Positions 1-13,719 of a stretch of DNA of 13,719 nt are shown here, one piece after another. The notes below the pieces were generated by a model. It was not told where the DNA came from. It worked only from the letters and a program-made list of their open reading frames with translations, and made no database searches. The position numbers and the translations under genes were made by a program. Positions within the stretch are counted from its first letter, which is position 1, and every line of letters begins with the position of its first letter. Origin of the DNA: a virus. The stretch is taken from positions 1 through 13,719 of IMG/VR virus record IMGVR_UViG_3300045988_070799; one strand, 5' to 3'.

Positions 1-104
1 TATTCCTGTAATAAAAAAATAATTGTCATTTCCCCACCGTCTGCGAGTTAGTTATAACTATCTGCCTATTAGTCAACCCTAACTCACTTATAAACAACAT
101 TCAA

Positions 105-124
105 TATATAACGTCTGTTATATA
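105..124. promoter_or_regulatory. Perfect 8-bp inverted repeat TATATAAC-gtct-GTTATATA inside the ITR (mirror copy 13596-13615); candidate operator or origin-binding site
   Basis: The palindrome is read directly from the sequence. Related motifs occur nearby: AGTTATAACT (50-59, a 10-bp palindrome), GTTAAC (133-138) and ACTGTTAGT / ACTAACAGT (142-150 / 175-183). Confidence 0.4.
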
Positions 125-186
125 ACGCATTTGTTAACTCAACTGTTAGTAGAAAAAATTCGTCCTCAAAATCAACTAACAGTATC

Positions 187-215
187 TTCACAATAGCCGT
201 TGAACGTGCTATTAT
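187..215 (+). promoter_or_regulatory. Candidate sigma-A/sigma-70 promoter inside ITR-L, facing inward
   Basis: The -35 is TTCACA (187-192), followed by a 17-nt spacer and an extended -10 TGcTATTAT (207-215). It lies about 50 nt upstream of the first ATG (269). Confidence 0.5.
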
Positions 216-268
216 ATACTTGTAAAGAGGAAGGAAACCTCACAAACCAGAAAGGGGAATGTTGCAAC

Positions 269-511
269 ATGAATAAATCAATTATAACACGCGAAGGCTG
301 GCACGTCACAAATGATGGCTTTCGCTACTATATTAAAGGTGGAAGAATCATTTACGGAGTTGTAAATGCCGAGGACGGCTCTGAAATTCGGGTGTTTCAA
401 TACAAGGTTCGACGTACAAAGAGCGGAAAAGTTTTTGACTACAAACGCGTTACACCACTTGCCCGTTATTATAATTTAACCCGCTACGTTTGGAGTCCAT
501 TTTTTGTTTGA
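269..511 (+). CDS. Hypothetical small basic protein (80 aa), first gene of the left arm
   Basis: The ATG at 269 follows the ITR-encoded SD AAAGGGGA (251-258). The ORF track extends the ORF to TTG 200, which lies inside the ITR promoter, so I trimmed it. I recognise no domain. Confidence 0.55.
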   Translation: MNKSIITREGWHVTNDGFRYYIKGGRIIYGVVNAEDGSEIRVFQYKVRRTKSGKVFDYKRVTPLARYYNLTRYVWSPFFV

Positions 512-524
512 AGGAGGGAACAAA

Positions 525-581
525 ATGTTGCTAACAGTAATCATGCTTGTAATTCTTGTAACATGGGGGTTGCAACAATGA
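525..581 (+). CDS. Candidate 18-aa hydrophobic micropeptide (MLLTVIMLVILVTWGLQQ)
   Basis: A consensus SD AAGGAGG (511-517) sits 7 nt upstream of ATG 525. The stop TGA (579-581) overlaps the ATG (578-580) of the next gene as ATGA. The ORF is below the ORF-track size cutoff. Confidence 0.35.
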   Translation: MLLTVIMLVILVTWGLQQ

Positions 582-763
582 ACAATAGAAAACGTCGATA
601 TAAAGTGATAACGATATCCATGTATCCTGAAGACTTGATGCGACTAAAAGAAATTTGCGACATTACGAGAGTGGGCAATCTTTCAAAAACTGCTCGTCTC
701 TGTATTAAAACCGTTTACAACGAATTGACAAGAAGGGGCCTTATAAATGGCAAGGTGGAATAA
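578..763 (+). CDS. Ribbon-helix-helix (Arc/MetJ/CopG-like) DNA-binding protein, putative transcriptional regulator
   Basis: The sequence MNNRKRRYKVITISMYPEDLMRLKEICD...NLSKTARLCIKTVY shows a basic N-terminus, a short beta strand and two helices, which is typical of RHH proteins. GGGGG (565-569) lies 8 nt before ATG 578. Confidence 0.6.
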   Translation: MNNRKRRYKVITISMYPEDLMRLKEICDITRVGNLSKTARLCIKTVYNELTRRGLINGKVE

Positions 764-1448
764 ACGATTCGCGCAAAGCACGGCGCTTGAAAATCGCCCG
801 CTTCCAGCGTCTGTATATGTAGGTACAAAAATTCCAAAAGCTGGGTTAACGCTAAAAGATGTTAAAAAAGAAATGAAGGCGCTTATAGATTTAATGGATA
901 AGCGCTTTAAGGCGGCACGGAAAAAGGGGGTTGAGTACGAAAGCATTAAACAGTATGAGCGCCATTATTGGGATAAACCATCCACCGTGCGGACGGTGGA
1001 GGAAGGCGTTCGGCAGATTCGCGCAATGTGGAAAGTGGTTAGTGGTACAAAAACTCCACAGAAATTATTTGCGGCACAACAAAACCAGTGGAAACGCGAA
1101 TATGAAACACTTTTACAGCGTGGATGGTTTACAGAAGAAACATTTACATATGAGGATTTTCTGCAATTCAGAAAATTTTTTGCCGTTTATTCCGACGCGA
1201 ATAAAGAAGCACAATATTATTACATCCTGCAAGATATAGTTGATATATCACAGGAGGGAACCACAAGGGTTAAGCGGAAATTCGCCAAATCGGACTGGGA
1301 GGACTTGTTAAAGAGGTGGGACTATTGGCAGCGTCAAGCGGATAAAGCACGGGCGCGATATAAAGAACGGCTTAAAGCAGGGGAATTTGTGAGCGGTTCA
1401 ACGGTTCGCGCAATGTTTGAAAAAGCCAAAAGAGAAGGGAATATTTAG
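747..1448 (+). CDS. Candidate terminal protein (TP) for protein-primed replication, 233 aa
   Basis: The gene lies immediately upstream of the protein-primed polB gene and is co-oriented with it, with a 2-nt gap. This matches the arrangement in phi29 (gp3-gp2), Cp-1 and PRD1. The protein is basic and helical, of TP-like size, and the genome has ITRs. The call rests on synteny and size only, because I recognise no sequence motif. The SD is AAGGGG (733-738). Confidence 0.55.
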   Translation: MARWNKRFAQSTALENRPLPASVYVGTKIPKAGLTLKDVKKEMKALIDLMDKRFKAARKKGVEYESIKQYERHYWDKPSTVRTVEEGVRQIRAMWKVVSGTKTPQKLFAAQQNQWKREYETLLQRGWFTEETFTYEDFLQFRKFFAVYSDANKEAQYYYILQDIVDISQEGTTRVKRKFAKSDWEDLLKRWDYWQRQADKARARYKERLKAGEFVSGSTVRAMFEKAKREGNI

Positions 1449-1450
1449 GA

Positions 1451-3466
1451 ATGTTCAGCGTATATGATGGCATTCAAAAAATAACGGCATTAACGCCTGA
1501 TAATCCACGGGCTAAAATTATATACGCTGATGCGCTGATGGCGTTTGACATTGAAACAACCCGGCTTGACGATGACAATGCCATAATGTACATCTGGCAA
1601 TGCGGGCTTTATGTAGGCGGAGAATACTATATCACATATGGGAGAACGTGGGAAGAATGGACTGCATTACAGGAAGCCTTAAATGCGCGACTGGGCGGAA
1701 TTACAATAATTTGTCTTGTTCATAATCTCTCATATGAGTTCCAATTTCTTGCAGGACTTTATGAATTTTCTGACGTTAAGTGCCTTAAAGCTCGAAAAAT
1801 ACTCTCTGCGACATGCGGTTGCATTGAATATCGTTGTTCCTACATCTGGACAAATAAAACGCTTTCAAAATTTCTGAAGGAAATGAATGTCCAGCACATG
1901 AAGAAGTCAGGAGCGGAATTTGACTATTCTAAAATCCGCTATCCGTGGACTGAACTTTCAGAAGCGGAGATTGAATATTGCCAAAATGACGTTATTGGAC
2001 TGCTTGAAGCTGCCGAAAAGAAGATTCTGCAAGATGGCGACACTCTTTATTCAGTTCCGCGCACATCTACGGGTTACGTCCGCCGGGATGCAAAACAAGC
2101 GTTAAGCCAAACACCACTCGGGGCGCTTAAACCCACAGAAGAAATTTATAGAAAACTGCGGAAGGCATTTCGTGGCGGAAACACGCACGCAAACCGTTAT
2201 TTTGTTGGCAAGGTTCTCTCCGGGGTGCAGTCCGTTGACCGTTCATCAAGTTATCCCGATGTGATGTTAAATCAGAAATTTCCGATGAAAGCATTCAAAA
2301 AATGCCCTGACGGAATCGCAACTATAAGGCGGGCGTTTGCATCTGGGCTTGCAATTCTTTGCACGATGAGCATAACAGGCGCGGCCCTGCGCAATCCGTT
2401 GTGGGGGTGCCCTTATATCCCTGTTAGCAAATGCCAAATGCTTATAAATCCTTTGGAAGATAACGGGCGTGTTCTTGAAGCGGATGCACTGACGATTGAA
2501 GTAACAGAAGTGGATATGCAGATAATTTTAGAAGAATATGACGGCGAATTCGATTTTACAGATATTTACACGGCAGAGAAGGACTATTTACCCAAGCCGT
2601 TTACTGATTGTATAAAACGCTACTACACAAACAAAACCAAACTTAAAGGCATTGAAGGGAGTGAATATGAATACATGAAAAGTAAGAATTTGTTAAATAG
2701 TCTGTACGGGATGACGGCGACAGACCCTGGAAAAGATGATATTATATTTGACGGCGACGAATATATTCAGCAGGAAACAGACGTAATTAAAAATATCAAA
2801 AAATCATTCCTTCCGTATCAATGGGGCGTATGGGTTACAGCGTACGCAAGGCTTGAGTTGGAAGAAATGATAAAGATTGCAGGGAATAATTTTGTTTATG
2901 CCGATACGGATAGCTGTAAATATATAAAATCAGCATCAATTAGTTACGAATCCTATAATAATAGATGCAAAACAATGTCACTTGAGCATGAGGCGTTTGC
3001 CGTAGACCCCCACGGAACATTTCATTACATGGGCGTTGCAGAAACAGAGGGTGAATATTTCCAGTTTTTAACATGGGGGGCGAAAAAATATGCTTCACAG
3101 GATGAACAGGGGCATATAAATATAACTATCGCAGGTGTGCGCAAAAATTCCACCAAAAATGCAGCTGGTGACATTGTGGAGTGGGGTGGTGCTGATGAAC
3201 TGGAAGAAGCAGGAGGACTTGTAAAATTCGCTCCCGGTTTTGTTTTCCGAAAAGCTGGGGGGCTTGAAAGCGTTTACAACGACCATGTATCGAAGACAAT
3301 TAGTATTGATGGGCACGAGTTACAAATAACAAGAAACGTATGTTTACGCCCTTCAACCTATGCAGTAGGAATTACATATAAATATGCGGACTTGCTCGAA
3401 GCGTTGAATAACACTTATATAAGTCTTGACGCTGACAGGAATGTGTGCTATAATCTTATTAGGTGA
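1451..3466 (+). CDS. Protein-primed family B DNA polymerase (phi29 gp2-like)
   Basis: The exonuclease motifs are present: ExoI FDIETT, ExoII HNLSYEFQF and ExoIII YCQNDVIGL. AFRGGNTH is followed by motif A VDRSSSYPDVM, then motif B KNLLNSLYGMTA, motif C VYADTDS (nt 2897-2914) and KxY GAKKYA. All occur in the canonical order. Confidence 0.97.
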   Translation: MFSVYDGIQKITALTPDNPRAKIIYADALMAFDIETTRLDDDNAIMYIWQCGLYVGGEYYITYGRTWEEWTALQEALNARLGGITIICLVHNLSYEFQFLAGLYEFSDVKCLKARKILSATCGCIEYRCSYIWTNKTLSKFLKEMNVQHMKKSGAEFDYSKIRYPWTELSEAEIEYCQNDVIGLLEAAEKKILQDGDTLYSVPRTSTGYVRRDAKQALSQTPLGALKPTEEIYRKLRKAFRGGNTHANRYFVGKVLSGVQSVDRSSSYPDVMLNQKFPMKAFKKCPDGIATIRRAFASGLAILCTMSITGAALRNPLWGCPYIPVSKCQMLINPLEDNGRVLEADALTIEVTEVDMQIILEEYDGEFDFTDIYTAEKDYLPKPFTDCIKRYYTNKTKLKGIEGSEYEYMKSKNLLNSLYGMTATDPGKDDIIFDGDEYIQQETDVIKNIKKSFLPYQWGVWVTAYARLELEEMIKIAGNNFVYADTDSCKYIKSASISYESYNNRCKTMSLEHEAFAVDPHGTFHYMGVAETEGEYFQFLTWGAKKYASQDEQGHINITIAGVRKNSTKNAAGDIVEWGGADELEEAGGLVKFAPGFVFRKAGGLESVYNDHVSKTISIDGHELQITRNVCLRPSTYAVGITYKYADLLEALNNTYISLDADRNVCYNLIR

Positions 3467-3856: not shown

Positions 3857-3886
3857 AGGCAGGGCGAGAACCCTGCCTTTATTTTT
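3857..3886 (+). terminator. Rho-independent terminator after the replication module
   Basis: The stem pairs AGGCAGGG (3857-3864) with CCCTGCCT (3871-3878) around a 6-nt loop. It is followed by the run TTTATTTTT. Confidence 0.8.
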
Positions 3887-4920: not shown

Positions 4921-4949
4921 TTGACAAATATAAAAAATTATGATATATT
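4921..4949 (+). promoter_or_regulatory. Near-consensus sigma-A promoter (candidate late or lysis-capsid promoter)
   Basis: The -35 is TTGACA (4921-4926), followed by a 17-nt spacer and an extended -10 TGaTATATT (4941-4949). Confidence 0.65.
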
Positions 4950-5059: not shown

Positions 5060-5254
5060 ATGGAAATCTCCGATATTGTTACGCTAATCACGAATGTAGG
5101 TTTTCCGATTGCGTGTACTTGTGCACTTTTCTATTTTTGGAATAAGGAGCGCGAACAGCACCGGGAAGAAACAGTGGAATTGAAGGATGCTATCAATAAT
5201 AATACGATTGTAATGCAGCACCTCATTGATAGGTTTGGCGGTGATGAAAATTGA
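5060..5254 (+). CDS. Small membrane protein, YvrJ-like; putative holin
   Basis: The 64-aa protein has a single N-terminal transmembrane segment containing the NVGFPI motif that I associate with the YvrJ family, and a charged C-terminal tail. The SD AGGGGGA precedes the start. The stop overlaps the start of the downstream NlpC/P60 gene as TTGA. Confidence 0.55.
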   Translation: MEISDIVTLITNVGFPIACTCALFYFWNKEREQHREETVELKDAINNNTIVMQHLIDRFGGDEN

Positions 5255-5754
5255 TTGCGGCAGAATGGGCGGAAAAAATCAGTGCAAACCGTGTAGATTT
5301 AATCGGCATTCCGTATACATCACTTGATTGTCAGGCATTTGTCGAATTTTGCCTGAAAAAATACGCGGGAATCTCCAAAAACTGGCGCGGCTCAAATGAT
5401 ATGTGGCGCAACGCTGTGCATGATAAATCCGAAAATTTTGATAATGTCGATGTAGGAGAATGGGTATTCTCCATCAAACATGATGGAAACGAGCCAAAGC
5501 GCTATACCGATGGAGTGAATGCATCACATGTTGGCATCTACATCGGAAACGGAGAAGTTATTCACTCGACGACGGGCGGCGTGCAGATGGACAAAATTGA
5601 CAATAGAAAGCGGTGGACACATCACGCAAAGGCTAATTGCTTATACTATGCCTCTGAGGTTGTCAACACGCCTGTGCCGGATGAGAACGAACTATATTCT
5701 AACCTATACGGCGAACTTGTCACACTTGTAAATAAATATGGAGGTAACAAATAA
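5251..5754 (+). CDS. NlpC/P60-family cell-wall endopeptidase, putative endolysin
   Basis: The catalytic Cys context is YTSLDCQAFV and the His context is SHVGIYIGNGEVIHS. The start is TTG; the next in-frame Met would delete the catalytic Cys. The gene is adjacent to the holin-like gene. Confidence 0.85.
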   Translation: MIAAEWAEKISANRVDLIGIPYTSLDCQAFVEFCLKKYAGISKNWRGSNDMWRNAVHDKSENFDNVDVGEWVFSIKHDGNEPKRYTDGVNASHVGIYIGNGEVIHSTTGGVQMDKIDNRKRWTHHAKANCLYYASEVVNTPVPDENELYSNLYGELVTLVNKYGGNK

Positions 5755-6080
5755 TGAATGTATCTGACATTTTGACTCTGGCAAAAGCAGGCTTCACCGC
5801 TGAACAGATTGTGAAGCTGATGCAGATTGGTGCACCAGCACCGGCACCAGCACCGGCACCAGCACCGGAACCAGCATCTGCACCGGCACCAGCATCTGCA
5901 CCAGCATCTGCACCGGCACCAGCACCGGATAATACACAGGCGCAGTTTGACAAGGTTTTCCAGCAAATCGCAAACCTTACTGGAATTGTGCAGAAGGGCA
6001 ATTTACAGAATACACACGTTGACAATAGCAAGACGTTGACCGCGGAGGATGTTCTTTCGGAAATCATTCGCCCGAACTAA
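5754..6080 (+). CDS. Putative scaffolding protein with a central Ala-Pro linker
   Basis: The 108-aa protein lies directly upstream of the capsid gene, as phi29 gp7 precedes gp8. It has an N-terminal helix-hairpin motif LAKAGFTAEQIVKLM, which is common in Firmicute phage scaffolds, a 32-residue (AP)n-type linker, and a helical C-terminus. GGAGG lies 9 nt upstream of the ATG. Confidence 0.5.
   Translation: MNVSDILTLAKAGFTAEQIVKLMQIGAPAPAPAPAPAPEPASAPAPASAPASAPAPAPDNTQAQFDKVFQQIANLTGIVQKGNLQNTHVDNSKTLTAEDVLSEIIRPN
5832..5927 (+). repeat. Imperfect tandem repeat of 6-nt GCACCR units (with GCATCT/GAACCA variants) encoding APAPAPAPAPAPEPASAPAPASAPASAPAPAP
   Basis: The repeat is read directly from the sequence. 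It opens spurious ORFs in several frames on both strands. Confidence 0.9.
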
Positions 6081-11127: not shown

Positions 11128-12579
11128 ATGGGTATTTGGGAACAATTCCCGTTTACGAATTTCCACGAACAAAATCTTGACTGGGCTTATAAGTCAATCA
11201 AAGAACTTGATGGAAGAGTTGACACGCTGGAAAAGAGCGGTAATGTAAGCAAAGAATACGTGGACGAACAGGATGCGGCGCTTGACGAAAAAATCAGCGG
11301 CGAACGTTCCGCGCGAACAACCGCAGACCAAGCACTCCAAAATCAGATTACAGCACATACTACAAGTATTAGCGGTCTAAACGGTCGAATGGTGGAAGCT
11401 GAAAAAAACATTGGCGTCAAGCCTTCTGTGCCTAATTTCAGCAGCATTTGGAGCACAATTGGCGAATACAATGCTACACAAGCAATCGGCAGTAAATTGC
11501 TTCAAGTTCAGACGGAGGGCAAAGAAAATCATCGTTCTATTGCAGGAAGTAATGGAGTGTATGATATTACCAAGGGAACTATTCAGGCGCGTTTGAATGT
11601 GATTGAGGATGCGCTGAAACCCGGCTCACTTGTAAAGCAGAACAGCTCAGCGATTATTTCCATTCCATCAAACACTGCAAGAGGTACGCGCTTTAAGCCT
11701 TCGTCAACCGTGCCGAAGTTTGACTTTGCTATTGCAGAACGTGAAACATCCATTGATACTGATGTCGGAACTTCTGATAATATCATTCTGCTGTGTTCGC
11801 CTATTATTGATGCAGCTGGCGTACAATATAATTCGTATGAAGTGGAAGCTAATTGCAAGGGAGACAAAACGCTCGAACATATGCGTGTCCGCGTGCGAAC
11901 GTTTGTATTGGTGGCGGGAGCTTCCGGCGAGCAGTATGCAACAACATCCTATGTAGATGAAAAAACTGATCAGCTGGCAACCGAATTGGGTAACGTAGAA
12001 GCAGAAGTCAAGGATGCATATACCAAAGCGGAAACAGCCGACAACAATGCCTCAATTGCCAAGTCAACCGCAACAACGGCAGCCTCTACTGCTTCTTCTG
12101 CACTGGAAAAAATCGGCACGAAACCGGCAGAATCGAAATATAACACCCTGTGGGATACAATCGGAATCTGGTCGGAAAATGTTCCGATGGCTCTCAGAAT
12201 CAATCCCGCCTTTAATTGGAGTCAGAACAATCGTTCAGCTATCAATGGCACTTCTGATTACCCTACTGATAAAGCGCCTATCAATTCGCGCTTATCCGAT
12301 TTGGAAACAGCTATTGCCAAATTCCAGAATATGCCAAAAATTGCGAGGGGCAACGTTCTGGCATACCAAGACCAAGACACCATTATTGATTATCAGTCGG
12401 CGGGATTTACCGAAATTCCGACCGTGGTTGCGACTTATGCAAACAAGGGGGCGGTTGCGGATAGTGTAACACGCAGTCAGTTGATTTTCGCCAAAACTAC
12501 AAGCTCAGCTAAAATTAGGCTTTCCGGCACGTCGACGCATGAGCAGTTCGCCGTGGACTGGATTGCAGTTGGTGTGTAA
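11128..12579 (+). CDS. Tail fibre / receptor-binding protein with an internal tandem duplication
   Basis: The protein has an N-terminal FTNFHEQNLDWAYKSIKEL motif followed by coiled-coil heptads, which is typical of Firmicute phage fibres. It contains two colinear modules (about aa 43-266 and 274-483). The C-terminus (...FTEIPTVV...FAVDWIAVGV) resembles an H-type-lectin-like knob. It is the last gene of the structural operon. Confidence 0.6.
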   Translation: MGIWEQFPFTNFHEQNLDWAYKSIKELDGRVDTLEKSGNVSKEYVDEQDAALDEKISGERSARTTADQALQNQITAHTTSISGLNGRMVEAEKNIGVKPSVPNFSSIWSTIGEYNATQAIGSKLLQVQTEGKENHRSIAGSNGVYDITKGTIQARLNVIEDALKPGSLVKQNSSAIISIPSNTARGTRFKPSSTVPKFDFAIAERETSIDTDVGTSDNIILLCSPIIDAAGVQYNSYEVEANCKGDKTLEHMRVRVRTFVLVAGASGEQYATTSYVDEKTDQLATELGNVEAEVKDAYTKAETADNNASIAKSTATTAASTASSALEKIGTKPAESKYNTLWDTIGIWSENVPMALRINPAFNWSQNNRSAINGTSDYPTDKAPINSRLSDLETAIAKFQNMPKIARGNVLAYQDQDTIIDYQSAGFTEIPTVVATYANKGAVADSVTRSQLIFAKTTSSAKIRLSGTSTHEQFAVDWIAVGV

Positions 12580-12581
12580 CA

Positions 12582-12611
12582 ATAAAGGGAGGGCATTGCC
12601 CTCCCTTTATT
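12582..12611. terminator. Bidirectional rho-independent terminator between convergent operons
   Basis: The stem pairs AATAAAGGGAGGGC (12582-12594) with GCCCTCCCTTTATT (12598-12611) around a 3-nt loop. The arms are A/T-rich at both distal ends. The right arm contains the stop codon of the minus-strand gene. Confidence 0.85.
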
Positions 12612-12852
12612 CACCCCATGCAGTTAGATGCACGCCCCCACGAAACCTGGTTGCAACCCAGCGATACCCCCCGGCACGGCGGCGGCAATACAGCTTTGCG
12701 CACTGCACTGCGGAATCGCACTCAGTTGCGCCTTTAAGCGCCTTCAATGCCATTTTTCGCGTGTAAAAATGATACCGAAAAACATCCGCCCCATGCGCAA
12801 AAACCTCATGCCCGTCTGCATCGTAACAAACGAGTACATAATTAGTAAGCAT
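12607..12852 (-). CDS. Hypothetical protein (81 aa) with a GC-rich, Arg/Gly/Cys-rich C-terminal half
   Basis: GGGAGGA lies 7 nt upstream of ATG 12852. I trimmed the ORF-track start at 12945. This is the last gene of the right-arm operon. I recognise no domain. Confidence 0.55.
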   Translation of the reverse strand: MLTNYVLVCYDADGHEVFAHGADVFRYHFYTRKMALKALKGATECDSAVQCAKLYCRRRAGGYRWVATRFRGGVHLTAWGE

Positions 12853-13069: not shown

Positions 13070-13257
13070 TGTGAACACCCCTTCCTGCGTTCTTTCCGCT
13101 TTGCTATAATTTCAAGGGTGATAGCCCGTGCGATGGCAAGTAGAGCTTCACGTTCATATGAACTGAAACCCTTATAATTTCGATTCGTCAAGTTGCAAAT
13201 CTCAGTTAATGTTTTCGCCCGAAGAAACTGAACCGCCAGAAACCGAAAATCATTCAT
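13066..13257 (-). CDS. Hypothetical protein (63 aa), possible helix-turn-helix
   Basis: The gene overlaps its upstream neighbour by 8 nt (ATGAATGA). The segment KTLTEICNLTNRNYKGFSSYER could form an HTH, but this is weak evidence. Confidence 0.5.
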   Translation of the reverse strand: MNDFRFLAVQFLRAKTLTEICNLTNRNYKGFSSYEREALLAIARAITLEIIAKRKERRKGCSQ

Positions 13258-13456
13258 TCAACACGCCCTCAATTCGTTCAGCCCTGAGTCGCTCAACAAA
13301 CATGTCATAAAGCAGAACTTTTACTTCCGCCTGTGTTAGCTTGTCAATCTTGTAATCATAAAGAACTGCACTAATGATAGCCTCAATTTGAGCCAGCGGA
13401 ATGTGACTATATGCCTTTTGTAACCGTTCACACCATACTTCCATTCTCTCTGACAT
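13250..13456 (-). CDS. Hypothetical protein (68 aa), first gene of the right arm
   Basis: ATG 13456 lies 5 nt after the GGGG core (3 nt after the end) of the ITR-encoded SD AAAGGGGAA. The protein is helical and slightly acidic. I recognise no domain. Confidence 0.6.
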   Translation of the reverse strand: MSERMEVWCERLQKAYSHIPLAQIEAIISAVLYDYKIDKLTQAEVKVLLYDMFVERLRAERIEGVLNE

Positions 13457-13459
13457 TTC

Positions 13460-13719
13460 TTCCCCTTTCTGGTTTGTGAGGTTTTCCTTCCTCTTTACAA
13501 GTATATAATAGCACGTTCAACGGCTATTGTGAAGATACTGTTAGTTGATTTTGAGGACGAATTTTTTCTACTAACAGTTGAGTTAACAAATGCGTTATAT
13601 AACAGACGTTATATATTGAATGTTGTTTATAAGTGAGTTAGGGTTGACTAATAGGCAGATAGTTATAACTAACTCGCAGACGGTGGGGAAATGACAATTA
13701 TTTTTTTATTACAGGAATA
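13460..13719. repeat. Right inverted terminal repeat (ITR-R)
   Basis: This is the reverse complement of 1-259 with one extra T in the run 13482-13485. It ends exactly at the last base of the window. Confidence 0.97.
13505..13533 (-). promoter_or_regulatory. Identical promoter copy inside ITR-R, facing inward
   Basis: This is the mirror image of 187-215: -10 TATTAT is the reverse complement of 13505-13510, and -35 TTCACA is the reverse complement of 13528-13533. It lies upstream of the minus-strand ATG at 13456. Confidence 0.5.

Follow-up and report, generated by a model that had tools for sequence, protein, structure and literature searches.

The inverted terminal repeats of a small gut podophage end in a copy of a widespread, apparently undescribed leader RNA motif

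The DNA considered here, IMG/VR record IMGVR_UViG_3300045988_070799 (13,719 nucleotides, analyzed over its full length and referred to below as the window), is the complete or nearly complete linear genome of a small phi29/Cp-1-like podophage from the gut. It encodes a protein-primed family B DNA polymerase (pPolB) at positions 1451-3466 (Pfam PF03175 DNA_pol_B_2, E 1.2e-15), a gp16-type packaging (encapsidation) ATPase (PF05894, E 1.3e-19), an upper collar connector (phrog_2038, E 1.3e-32) and a major head protein (phrog_2006, E 2.4e-12). Genes on the plus strand form a block from 269 to approximately 12,579, while four small open reading frames (ORFs) on the minus strand, all ORFans, run from 13,456 down to approximately 12,607 and meet the late genes at a terminator at 12,580-12,606. 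Both ends of the genome are inverted terminal repeats (ITRs), each of which extends inward through a promoter, a transcribed leader and a Shine-Dalgarno (SD) sequence, and it is this inner portion that forms the subject of the present analysis. The features concerned are the following.

1..259, plus strand: left ITR, the true end of which is probably 3 nt (GGG) longer
13460..13719, minus strand: right ITR, 260 nt, with an extra A in the leader loop
187..215, plus strand: left early promoter, TTCACA-17-TGcTATTAT with an extended -10 (-35 at 187-192; TG at 207-208; TATTAT at 210-215)
13505..13533, minus strand: right early promoter, identical to the left
225..255, plus strand: left copy of the leader motif (stem 227-230/238-241, GAGG/CCTC; loop 231-237, AAGGAAA; linker; AACCAGAAAGG at 245-255)
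13464..13495, minus strand: right copy of the leader motif, with the canonical 8-nt loop AAGGAAAA
249..257, plus strand: SD sequence AGAAAGGGG, the last element inside the ITR
269..511, plus strand: first gene of the left arm, 80 amino acids (MNKSIITREGW...), an ORFan conserved in 11 relatives
13250..13456, minus strand: first gene of the right arm, 68 amino acids (MSERMEVWCE...), an ORFan also present in L085, L089 and the left arm of L093

Positions 1-237 are 100% complementary to 13483-13719; a 1-nt difference in a run of A residues follows (A3 at 235-237 on the left, A4 on the right, the additional A lying in the leader loop), after which a further 25 nt are identical and identity ends at 259 on the left and 13460 on the right. 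The left ATG (269) lies 9 nt and the right ATG (13456) 3 nt beyond this limit, as the initial annotation had placed them, and on the right arm 7 nt separate the leader motif from the ATG. That annotation had also proposed that the repeat does not stop at a replication origin, and the repeat indeed reaches past any plausible origin, a conserved promoter, 5' untranslated region (UTR) and SD sequence being found in both arms. The leader between promoter and SD measures approximately 45 nt in each arm, and AGAAAGGGG is complementary to the Firmicute 16S rRNA 3'-terminal sequence UCUUUCC(U)C. As the first genes of the two terminal operons are unrelated, the identity of the initiation signals that precede them is a fact of sequence, and the statement that two unrelated operons share these signals stands. 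The ITR promoter scores 10/12 in addition to its extended -10 TG; the window contains five sites of at least 10/12 with an extended TG, whereas first-order Markov resamples contain 0.33 +/- 0.53, and a single stretch of 260 nt would be expected to hold approximately 0.003 sites of such quality. The strongest two promoter matches of the genome (11/12 with TG, plus strand) are located elsewhere, at 3426-3454 and 4921-4949, and both are without the hairpin motif: one is situated inside the end of the polymerase gene ahead of a 128-amino-acid gene, and the other is followed by a GC-rich leader of approximately 100 nt, with apparent internal complementarity, before a 64-amino-acid gene at 5060.

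The same arrangement recurs among relatives of the phage. IMG/VR holds 13 full-length close relatives, with amino acid identities of 89-94% for the DNA polymerase and 80-97% for the major capsid protein, and dozens of distant ones with polymerase identities of 32-43%, while the sole GenBank relative is MT839743, a partial, 4-kb unannotated human-fecal contig. The earlier observation that the two ITRs carry the same inward promoter, 5' UTR and SD sequence is confirmed for the window, and the inward promoter and leader were also found in both arms of all 12 relatives for which both arms are readable, as well as on single arms of the partial contigs L088, L001, L012 and L013. In all 12 relatives, the arms diverge 0-6 nt past AGAAAGG and 3-10 nt ahead of the start codons. 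The TGnTATTATAT element is almost invariant in the family and the -35 reads TTCACA or TGTACA; the spacer drifts in sequence while retaining a length of 17 nt in all arms except the left arm of L092. Column conservation across ten genomes is 0.60-0.79 at positions 1-140, 0.85 at 141-180 and 0.75-0.83 over the promoter, and reaches 0.95-0.96 at 221-260, so that the transcribed leader is the most conserved segment of the ITR (compared with 0.60-0.85 elsewhere). ITR identity is 0.90-1.00 within a genome and averages 0.76 (range, 0.62-0.95) between genomes, an excess which indicates that the two ends evolve in concert; the few differences between the arms of one genome fall mainly in the inner half of the repeat. 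When every genome of this phage family was searched with a covariance model of the leader, each gave exactly two matches, namely the ITR copies. Among 16 distant gut podophage contigs encoding pPolB, which carry terminal repeats of 33-410 bp, inspection revealed none with a repeat ending at the SD sequence on both arms and none with the leader motif.

The leader follows a common plan, comprising a variable stem of 3-6 bp, the loop AAGGAAAA, an A/C-rich linker of 3-5 nt and the sequence AACCAGAAAGG, with an ATG 8-10 nt further on. Stems of nearly any sequence are encountered, including GAGG/CCTC, GGTG/CACC, AGTG/CACT, AGCC/GGCT, GTTG/CAAC, GGAC/GTCC and others. Covariance model R1 recognizes the right copy of the window with 50.5 bits (E 3.3e-12) and the left copy with 40.2 bits (E 4.5e-9), the seed of this model having included the window rows, with 113 of its 115 sequences being drawn from other loci, mostly from unrelated contigs, with five from close relatives of the phage. 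In 124 unique matches selected without a stem requirement, a stem of at least 3 bp is formed in 88% of cases (20% in flank shuffles) and 28 distinct 4-bp stems are represented. In a 115-sequence MAFFT alignment (A2), 98.2% of cells are paired at the three innermost positions of the stem compared with 63% after shuffling, and double-sided changes number 102, compared with 21.5 +/- 3.6 in shuffles. The covariation score is 0.855 against 0.18 in shuffled data (0/500), slid controls reach at most 0.126, and the hairpin obtained with RNAalifold is the same one. While the stems are free to vary, 114 of 137 unique copies keep the loop AAGGAAAA unchanged, and AACCAGAAAGG is conserved as well. The two ITR leaders are members of this motif, and its stem covaries.

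Beyond the phage family, exact matches to a 25-nt leader pattern are present in approximately 30 unrelated viral contigs (18-181 kb) from metagenomes of gut and rumen, and almost all of these matches stand directly after a consensus TTGACA-17-TGnTATAAT promoter and directly before an ATG; relaxed matching reveals up to six diverged copies per 14-kb locus. The -10 of a sigma-70 promoter ends 8-15 nt (mode, 12) before the stem in 127 of 159 copies, with an extended TG in 116 of those 127, and the corresponding distance in the window is 11 nt, which implies that the hairpin starts within a few nucleotides of the 5' end of the transcript. An ATG follows 8-10 nt after the GG in 125 of the 159 copies, and AAAGG is followed by A or G in 87%, both of which can pair with the next 16S base, U. 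The genes downstream of the motif belong to at least 49 unrelated ORF families (median length, 111 amino acids), all of which are ORFans where tested.

With regard to hosts, the exact leader of the window has no match in 185,579 species genomes, and a stem-agnostic pattern retrieved 60 stretches in genome contigs. These are mostly contigs of metagenome-assembled genomes (MAGs) assigned to the Acutalibacteraceae, Oscillospiraceae, Christensenellales, Lachnospiraceae and other Clostridia from rumen and gut, while approximately a dozen matches in unrelated taxa look like chance. In L131 (3495-5442), from a Clostridiales MAG of the rumen, one copy of the motif precedes the first gene read divergently from a tyrosine integrase gene, which in turn adjoins a host gene for an M32 carboxypeptidase; the proximity of the integrase to a host gene places this copy in an integrated element and provides a clue to the host. 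In L131 and in L135, L137, L141, L161 and L185, no promoter lies directly upstream of the hairpin, which is instead preceded by a second recurring element, GGGTGAGGGAAAC...(G)CCCTG; copies of this kind stand ahead of a family of 136-amino-acid proteins (MKK...I.VTKKF..), and the element may be another structured leader element. An Rfam 15 cmscan over 222-260 and 13460-13498 gave no match at E <= 10, the only GenBank phage sequence with the motif is the partial relative MT839743, and a literature search by sequence string returned primers only and nothing relevant. The covariance model did not match any of 37 distant pPolB podophage loci, PRD1 or Cp-1. The motif is thus widespread among phages of gut and rumen Clostridia and apparently undescribed.

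The sequence immediately downstream of the leader varies in gene content. In the phage family, the first gene of the left arm is either the MNKSIITREGW gene or an extra gene placed before it, of which there are four unrelated kinds, and where such a gene has been inserted the MNKS gene retains its own AGAAGGGAAGTTGCA remnant; the right arm opens with one of at least two unrelated genes. The left arms of L092 and L093 (positions 1-1250) carry the right-arm gene set of the window, located upstream of the genes for the terminal protein (TP) and for a protein resembling the ribbon-helix-helix (RHH) class, while their right arms bear another copy of the same first-gene family, the left copy of L092 being truncated. 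At the level of sequence comparison, this arrangement is evidence of past end-to-end transfer. The variable genes after the leader, together with a right-arm set on left arms, identify the 3' edge of the leader as a recurrent junction for cassette gain, loss and exchange between ends, and first-gene cassettes have been shuffled at this joint. The terminal "ITRs" of L085 and L090 (59 and 55 nt) resemble de Bruijn k-mer overlaps at the inner ITR boundary, and mark the point of arm divergence.

The remaining features of the window, among them those that flank or may act upon the terminal operons, are given below.

747..3466, plus strand: putative TP (747-1448) and protein-primed PolB (1451-3466; Pfam match for the polymerase), the body of the left early operon
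578..763, plus strand: 61-amino-acid candidate RHH protein (fold suggestive)
3857..3878, plus strand: intrinsic terminator, end of the left early operon
12580..12606, no strand: bidirectional terminator hairpin where the right-arm operon and the late genes meet (alignment AAAGGGAGGGCATTGCCCTCCCTTTAT)
21..40 (mirror 13680-13699), no strand: AATTGTCAT..TTCCCCA block near the terminus, a candidate origin element for TP/DNA polymerase
105..127, no strand: two TATATAACG direct repeats 14 bp apart, confined to the ITRs
139..184, no strand: two TCAACT-N4-GTA elements 33 bp apart with an A-tract between them, just upstream of the -35

Relatives L083, L084, L087, L089 and L092 begin with GGGTATTCC, and in L092 Illumina adapter read-through lies directly against GGG at both ends, from which it follows that the window probably lacks three terminal bases and that these ends are true physical ends. 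The true ends are probably 5'-GGG, a repeat that would suit sliding-back initiation. TTCCCCA is conserved within the close family and may be part of a conserved origin element; a TTCCCCA-like block is also present approximately 25-40 nt from the terminus of pPolB podophages with 33-43% polymerase identity (L026, L031, L046, L050, L055 and L062). The TATATAACG repeats have four matches in the window, all within the ITRs (0.2 expected), and are restricted to one lineage of the family. Within the genome the TCAACT-N4-GTA pair is likewise found in the ITRs only (0.07 expected), with a family column conservation of 0.85, and its elements are candidate regulator or UP-like sites. A search of the ITR for an outward-facing promoter, of the kind annotated in Cp-1, found none. 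A promoter-like GTGACG-17-TGtTATAAT at 309-281 (minus strand), inside gene 1, is directed outward into the left ITR, antisense to the leader, and is weaker in L082 (GATAAT).

As regards the genes, the 233-amino-acid ORF upstream of the polymerase is a putative TP assigned from position alone, having no detectable homologs in Pfam and PHROG searches. Packaging RNA (pRNA) gave no Rfam match at E <= 10, and this phage family may be without pRNA or may possess one too divergent for detection; over the whole window at the same threshold, Rfam returned only weak matches, in the terminator region (12570-12656), and noise. A hydrophobic 18-codon mini-ORF, MLLTVIMLVILVTWGLQQ, with a strong SD sequence, AAGGAGGGA, occupies 525-581 (plus strand), its stop overlapping the ATG of the RHH-like gene; it is kept in L085, and L093 has a similar peptide tail. 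Directly upstream of the head protein gene, a 108-amino-acid ORF (5754-6080, plus strand) contains a long Ala-Pro repeat tract (APAPAPAPAPEPASAPAPASAP...) and may encode a scaffold or linker protein. A long hairpin with 23-nt arms that are 91% complementary (7272-7294/7341-7363) is situated in the gap after the major head protein gene.

Based on these sequence comparisons, we propose that the leader is an early-expression module, composed of a 5' hairpin and a tail-type SD sequence, which also serves as a recombination joint fixing the inner edge of the ITR, a reading that we regard as probable. The ITR would then consist of two functional zones, namely an outer protein-priming origin of approximately 45 bp and an inner early-expression module of approximately 120 bp. 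Transcription from the extended -10 sigma-A/sigma-70 promoter is predicted to start near 222 and 13498, yielding a transcript with at most approximately 5 unpaired nucleotides, a short hairpin displaying AAGGAAA(A), an unstructured A/C-rich linker and the SD sequence AGAAAGG(G). After infection, both copies would direct the host RNA polymerase inward. Of the two, the left is presumed to drive gene 1, the mini-ORF, the RHH-like gene, the TP and DNA polymerase genes and the 128-amino-acid gene as far as the terminator at 3857, and the right copy to drive the four small ORFans to the terminator at 12580-12606, the early timing being suggested by analogy with the TP/DNA polymerase operons of Cp-1 and phi29. 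The 5'-proximal hairpin, possibly together with a 30S subunit on its SD-like loop, in which 5'-AAGGA would pair with 3'-UUCCU of the 16S tail, is believed to shield the 5' end from decay, while the tail-type SD sequence of 7-9 nt, AGAAAGG(A/G), would pair with the last 7-8 nt of 16S rRNA and so permit efficient initiation. The leader itself would be a general-purpose cassette, employed by numerous phages and integrated elements of Clostridia from gut and rumen.

The same module would account for the extent of the repeat. Panhandle-type repair is known for adenovirus-like replication, and such repair, coupled with recombination or template switching in the shared module, would homogenize everything distal to it and nothing proximal; the arms diverge directly after the SD sequence since this is the inner edge of the only sequence common to both terminal operons. 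First-gene cassettes would be inserted, lost and moved between arms at this same joint. Both the role in stability and translation and the mechanism of homogenization are offered as the likeliest ones. If the leader acts as a stabilizer and translation signal, changing the loop from AAGGAAAA to AACCAAAA or disrupting the stem should cause a loss of expression, which a compensatory stem should rescue.

A number of observations weigh against this proposal. In the left arm, the ATG is 13 nt after the GG of the SD sequence (254-255) rather than the 8-10 nt usual for the motif, and an out-of-frame ATG is present at 259. The patterns used for retrieval fixed the loop, the SD sequence and, for L131-L190, the closing G-C pair, leaving only the two outer stem pairs as fully unbiased. 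Single-sequence folding of either leader is no better than that of shuffles (z -0.4 and -0.1), the hairpin being weak; a stable leader structure predicted in this manner was rejected, and the structure emerged from comparative data only. As de Bruijn assemblers collapse repeats longer than k, the identity between the arms of one genome is possibly inflated. Finally, a plain stabilizer should be able to dispense with the invariance of the loop and with the AACC that is conserved ahead of the SD sequence. The invariance of the loop and of the ACC makes a sequence-specific partner likely, be it the ribosome, a CsrA-like protein or another protein, and a host 16S 3' end of ...CCUUUCUGGU would explain the conserved ACCAG. 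A more specific formulation is that the ITR 5' UTR is one copy of an undescribed, widespread cis-acting RNA motif (the AAGGAAAA hairpin and AACCAGAAAGG) located at the 5' ends of early transcripts, which acts via a specific host partner (the 16S tail on a standby 30S subunit, or a CsrA-like protein) and is also a joint for early-cassette exchange, in this instance exchanging whole genome ends and setting the ITR boundary; this version is put forward tentatively, as a conjecture somewhat less likely than not.

Among the alternatives, the leader could be mainly a binding site for a sequence-specific post-transcriptional regulator, of the CsrA type or a factor common to these phages, which represses or times all early mRNAs that bear it. 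Retention of the loop AAGGAAAA and of AACCAGAAAGG alongside freely varying stems would be expected of such a site, and a CsrA dimer can span a pair of GGA sites of which the first is presented by a hairpin loop and the second lies at the SD sequence, as in the hag leader of Bacillus subtilis; in the present motif, the loop GGA is invariant and approximately 22-25 nt from the SD sequence, which reads AAAGGA in 57% of copies, the window reading AAAGGGGAA. However, the second GGA is absent from the other 43%, no candidate RNA-binding protein was identified in the 13.7-kb genome by Pfam and PHROG searches, and the same features equally fit 16S rRNA pairing, such that we consider a predominantly regulatory site unlikely. 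The initial annotation had named the RHH protein of the left arm as one candidate regulator, and it is perhaps slightly less likely that this 61-amino-acid RHH-like protein binds operators in both ITRs and represses the two terminal promoters as a pair, thereby autoregulating the early genes. The AlphaFold2 model of this protein (pLDDT 71) contains helices at residues 17-30 and 35-52 after an N terminus that is unstructured in the monomer, its top Foldseek matches are mostly of the RHH fold (ORF56/CopG-like, ParD2, NikR, MatP and PrpA), and conserved, ITR-specific TCAACT-N4-GTA elements lie beside the -35. All of these structural matches are, however, insignificant (E 1.7-9.5, TM approximately 0.5), the protein has no Pfam, PHROG or PDB sequence match, its homologs are without a Pfam domain, and a search of 5.8 billion proteins gave only close relatives and no domains, leaving the RHH label weakly backed. 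Furthermore, residues 8-15, the putative DNA-reading strand, are unchanged between genomes with wholly different promoter spacers, and no covariation between these residues and the spacers was detected. An operator in the promoter spacer was accordingly rejected as a candidate, the spacer being unconserved despite dyads in some genomes (L091 and L005). If the protein binds the ITR, its target would thus be a conserved block such as the TCAACT-N4-GTA pair (139-184), for which it is a reasonable candidate.

The inner ITR might instead act as DNA in replication or packaging, serving for example as a packaging signal or as a nucleoprotein scaffold similar to the p6 sites of phi29, in which case it would resemble a promoter and leader only incidentally. 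The location within the terminal repeat of a protein-primed genome accords with this, as replication and packaging signals cluster in the terminal regions of phi29 and adenovirus, but the leader also occurs at many internal sites of large, unrelated phage contigs, always in the order promoter, hairpin, SD sequence and ATG, its stem covaries as RNA would, and the -10 and TG are invariant while the spacer drifts at constant length; a purely DNA-level role is consequently deemed very improbable. Even less credible is that the long identical ends are an assembly artifact and that the real genome has short ITRs or none. The collapse of repeats in de Bruijn graphs mentioned above and the several relatives which end in 55- to 59-nt "ITRs" similar to k-mer overlaps would permit such an error, but 12 independent assemblies share the architecture with genome-specific ITR sequences, L089 and L092 retain diverged arms at 95-98% identity, and L092 has adapter on GGG at both ends. 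In addition, the Sanger-sequenced genome of Cp-1 has the same layout, and ITRs are expected for a pPolB phage.

The proposed early-expression module and joint would imply that the long ITRs of protein-primed phages can do more than serve as origins, comprising in this case a duplicated early-expression unit, by virtue of which whichever end host RNA polymerase reaches starts with the same signals. The inner boundary of the ITR would be accounted for by a common module and not by chance. The leader, a compact RNA motif supported by covariation, would mark early genes in many uncultivated phages of Clostridia, and may be of use in annotating early regions and predicting hosts. It is also a candidate 5' UTR for high expression in genetic tools aimed at gut anaerobes that are difficult to manipulate, and it provides an example on which the idea that regulatory cassettes serve as recombination joints in phage mosaicism can be tested.

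Several described leaders and cassettes share individual properties with the motif. Firmicute 5' stabilizers (the cryIIIA STAB-SD and the aprE and ermC 5' stem-loops) consist of an SD-like sequence or hairpin at most a few nucleotides from the 5' end, complementary to the 3' end of 16S rRNA and not immediately followed by a start codon, that acts against 5'-to-3' decay. The window has a STAB-SD-like feature, in that approximately 10-14 nt separate the loop AAGGA from the predicted start of transcription and the 12 nt after the loop contain no start codon; the known stabilizers are, however, single-gene cases without a family-wide conserved loop and linker, and a stabilizing function is suggested here by analogy. 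CsrA-controlled leaders such as B. subtilis hag resemble the motif in presenting a loop GGA in a short 5' hairpin and a second purine-rich site over the SD sequence approximately 20 nt downstream, but differ in that only 57% of the present copies contain the second GGA. The PeSL "mobile regulatory cassettes" of T4-type phages, said to have been described by Arbiol and colleagues in 2010, reportedly place an early promoter and stem-loop before variable small early ORFs, and their repeats are said to have been proposed as homology for the shuffling of ORF cassettes. The leader family is analogous in its repeated promoter/stem-loop units (up to six per 14-kb locus) and interchangeable small ORFs, although the window is not T4-type, and it differs in its phages, hosts and sequence, its invariant SD-like loop, its fixed SD sequence, its occurrence in very different phage types and its position here at the inner end of an ITR. 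The leader family is outside every described family that could be tested.

At the level of genome organization, phi29 possesses a comparable gp16 ATPase, connector and pPolB module. Its early genes are found at both ends and are transcribed by host sigma-A RNA polymerase, the left early operon reading outward. The phi29 ITR is 6 bp, and its early promoters are A2b/A2c/A1 and C2 (PMC11476376), such that there is no signal common to its two ends. The initial annotation had likened the inward transcription from both ends to that of PRD1 and Cp-1, and comparison with the GenBank records (Z47794 for Cp-1 and AY848689 for PRD1) upholds this for Cp-1 but not for PRD1. PRD1, a member of the Tectiviridae and of a different virus realm, has a linear protein-primed genome with inward early genes at its left (VIII/I) and right (XII/XIX) ends, but its arms are identical over 110 bp only, and the 120-130 nt leading to genes VIII and XII are unrelated between arms, so that its promoters are not common repeat sequence. 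The Streptococcus phage Cp-1 is the closest known system, being a protein-primed podophage with the order TP, DNA polymerase and late genes, for which Z47794 annotates inward sigma-70 -35/-10 elements at mirrored positions in both arms; inward early promoters that are borne by the ITR and thereby duplicated are, therefore, a known design. By alignment, the Cp-1 ITR comprises 236 identical bp followed by approximately 95% similarity to approximately position 352, and the arms lose similarity some 20 nt short of their first genes, which differ between the arms and begin at 376 and the mirrored position 375. Unlike the window, Cp-1 has two tandem TTGACA-17-TGCTATAAT promoters per arm, its perfect repeat ends inside the first of these, its two SD sequences differ and it lacks the AAGGAAAA hairpin leader, whereas in the window arm identity covers the whole 5' UTR and SD sequence. 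What is new beyond the Cp-1 design is that the ITR terminates in a copy of a widespread early-leader RNA motif which is apparently undescribed.

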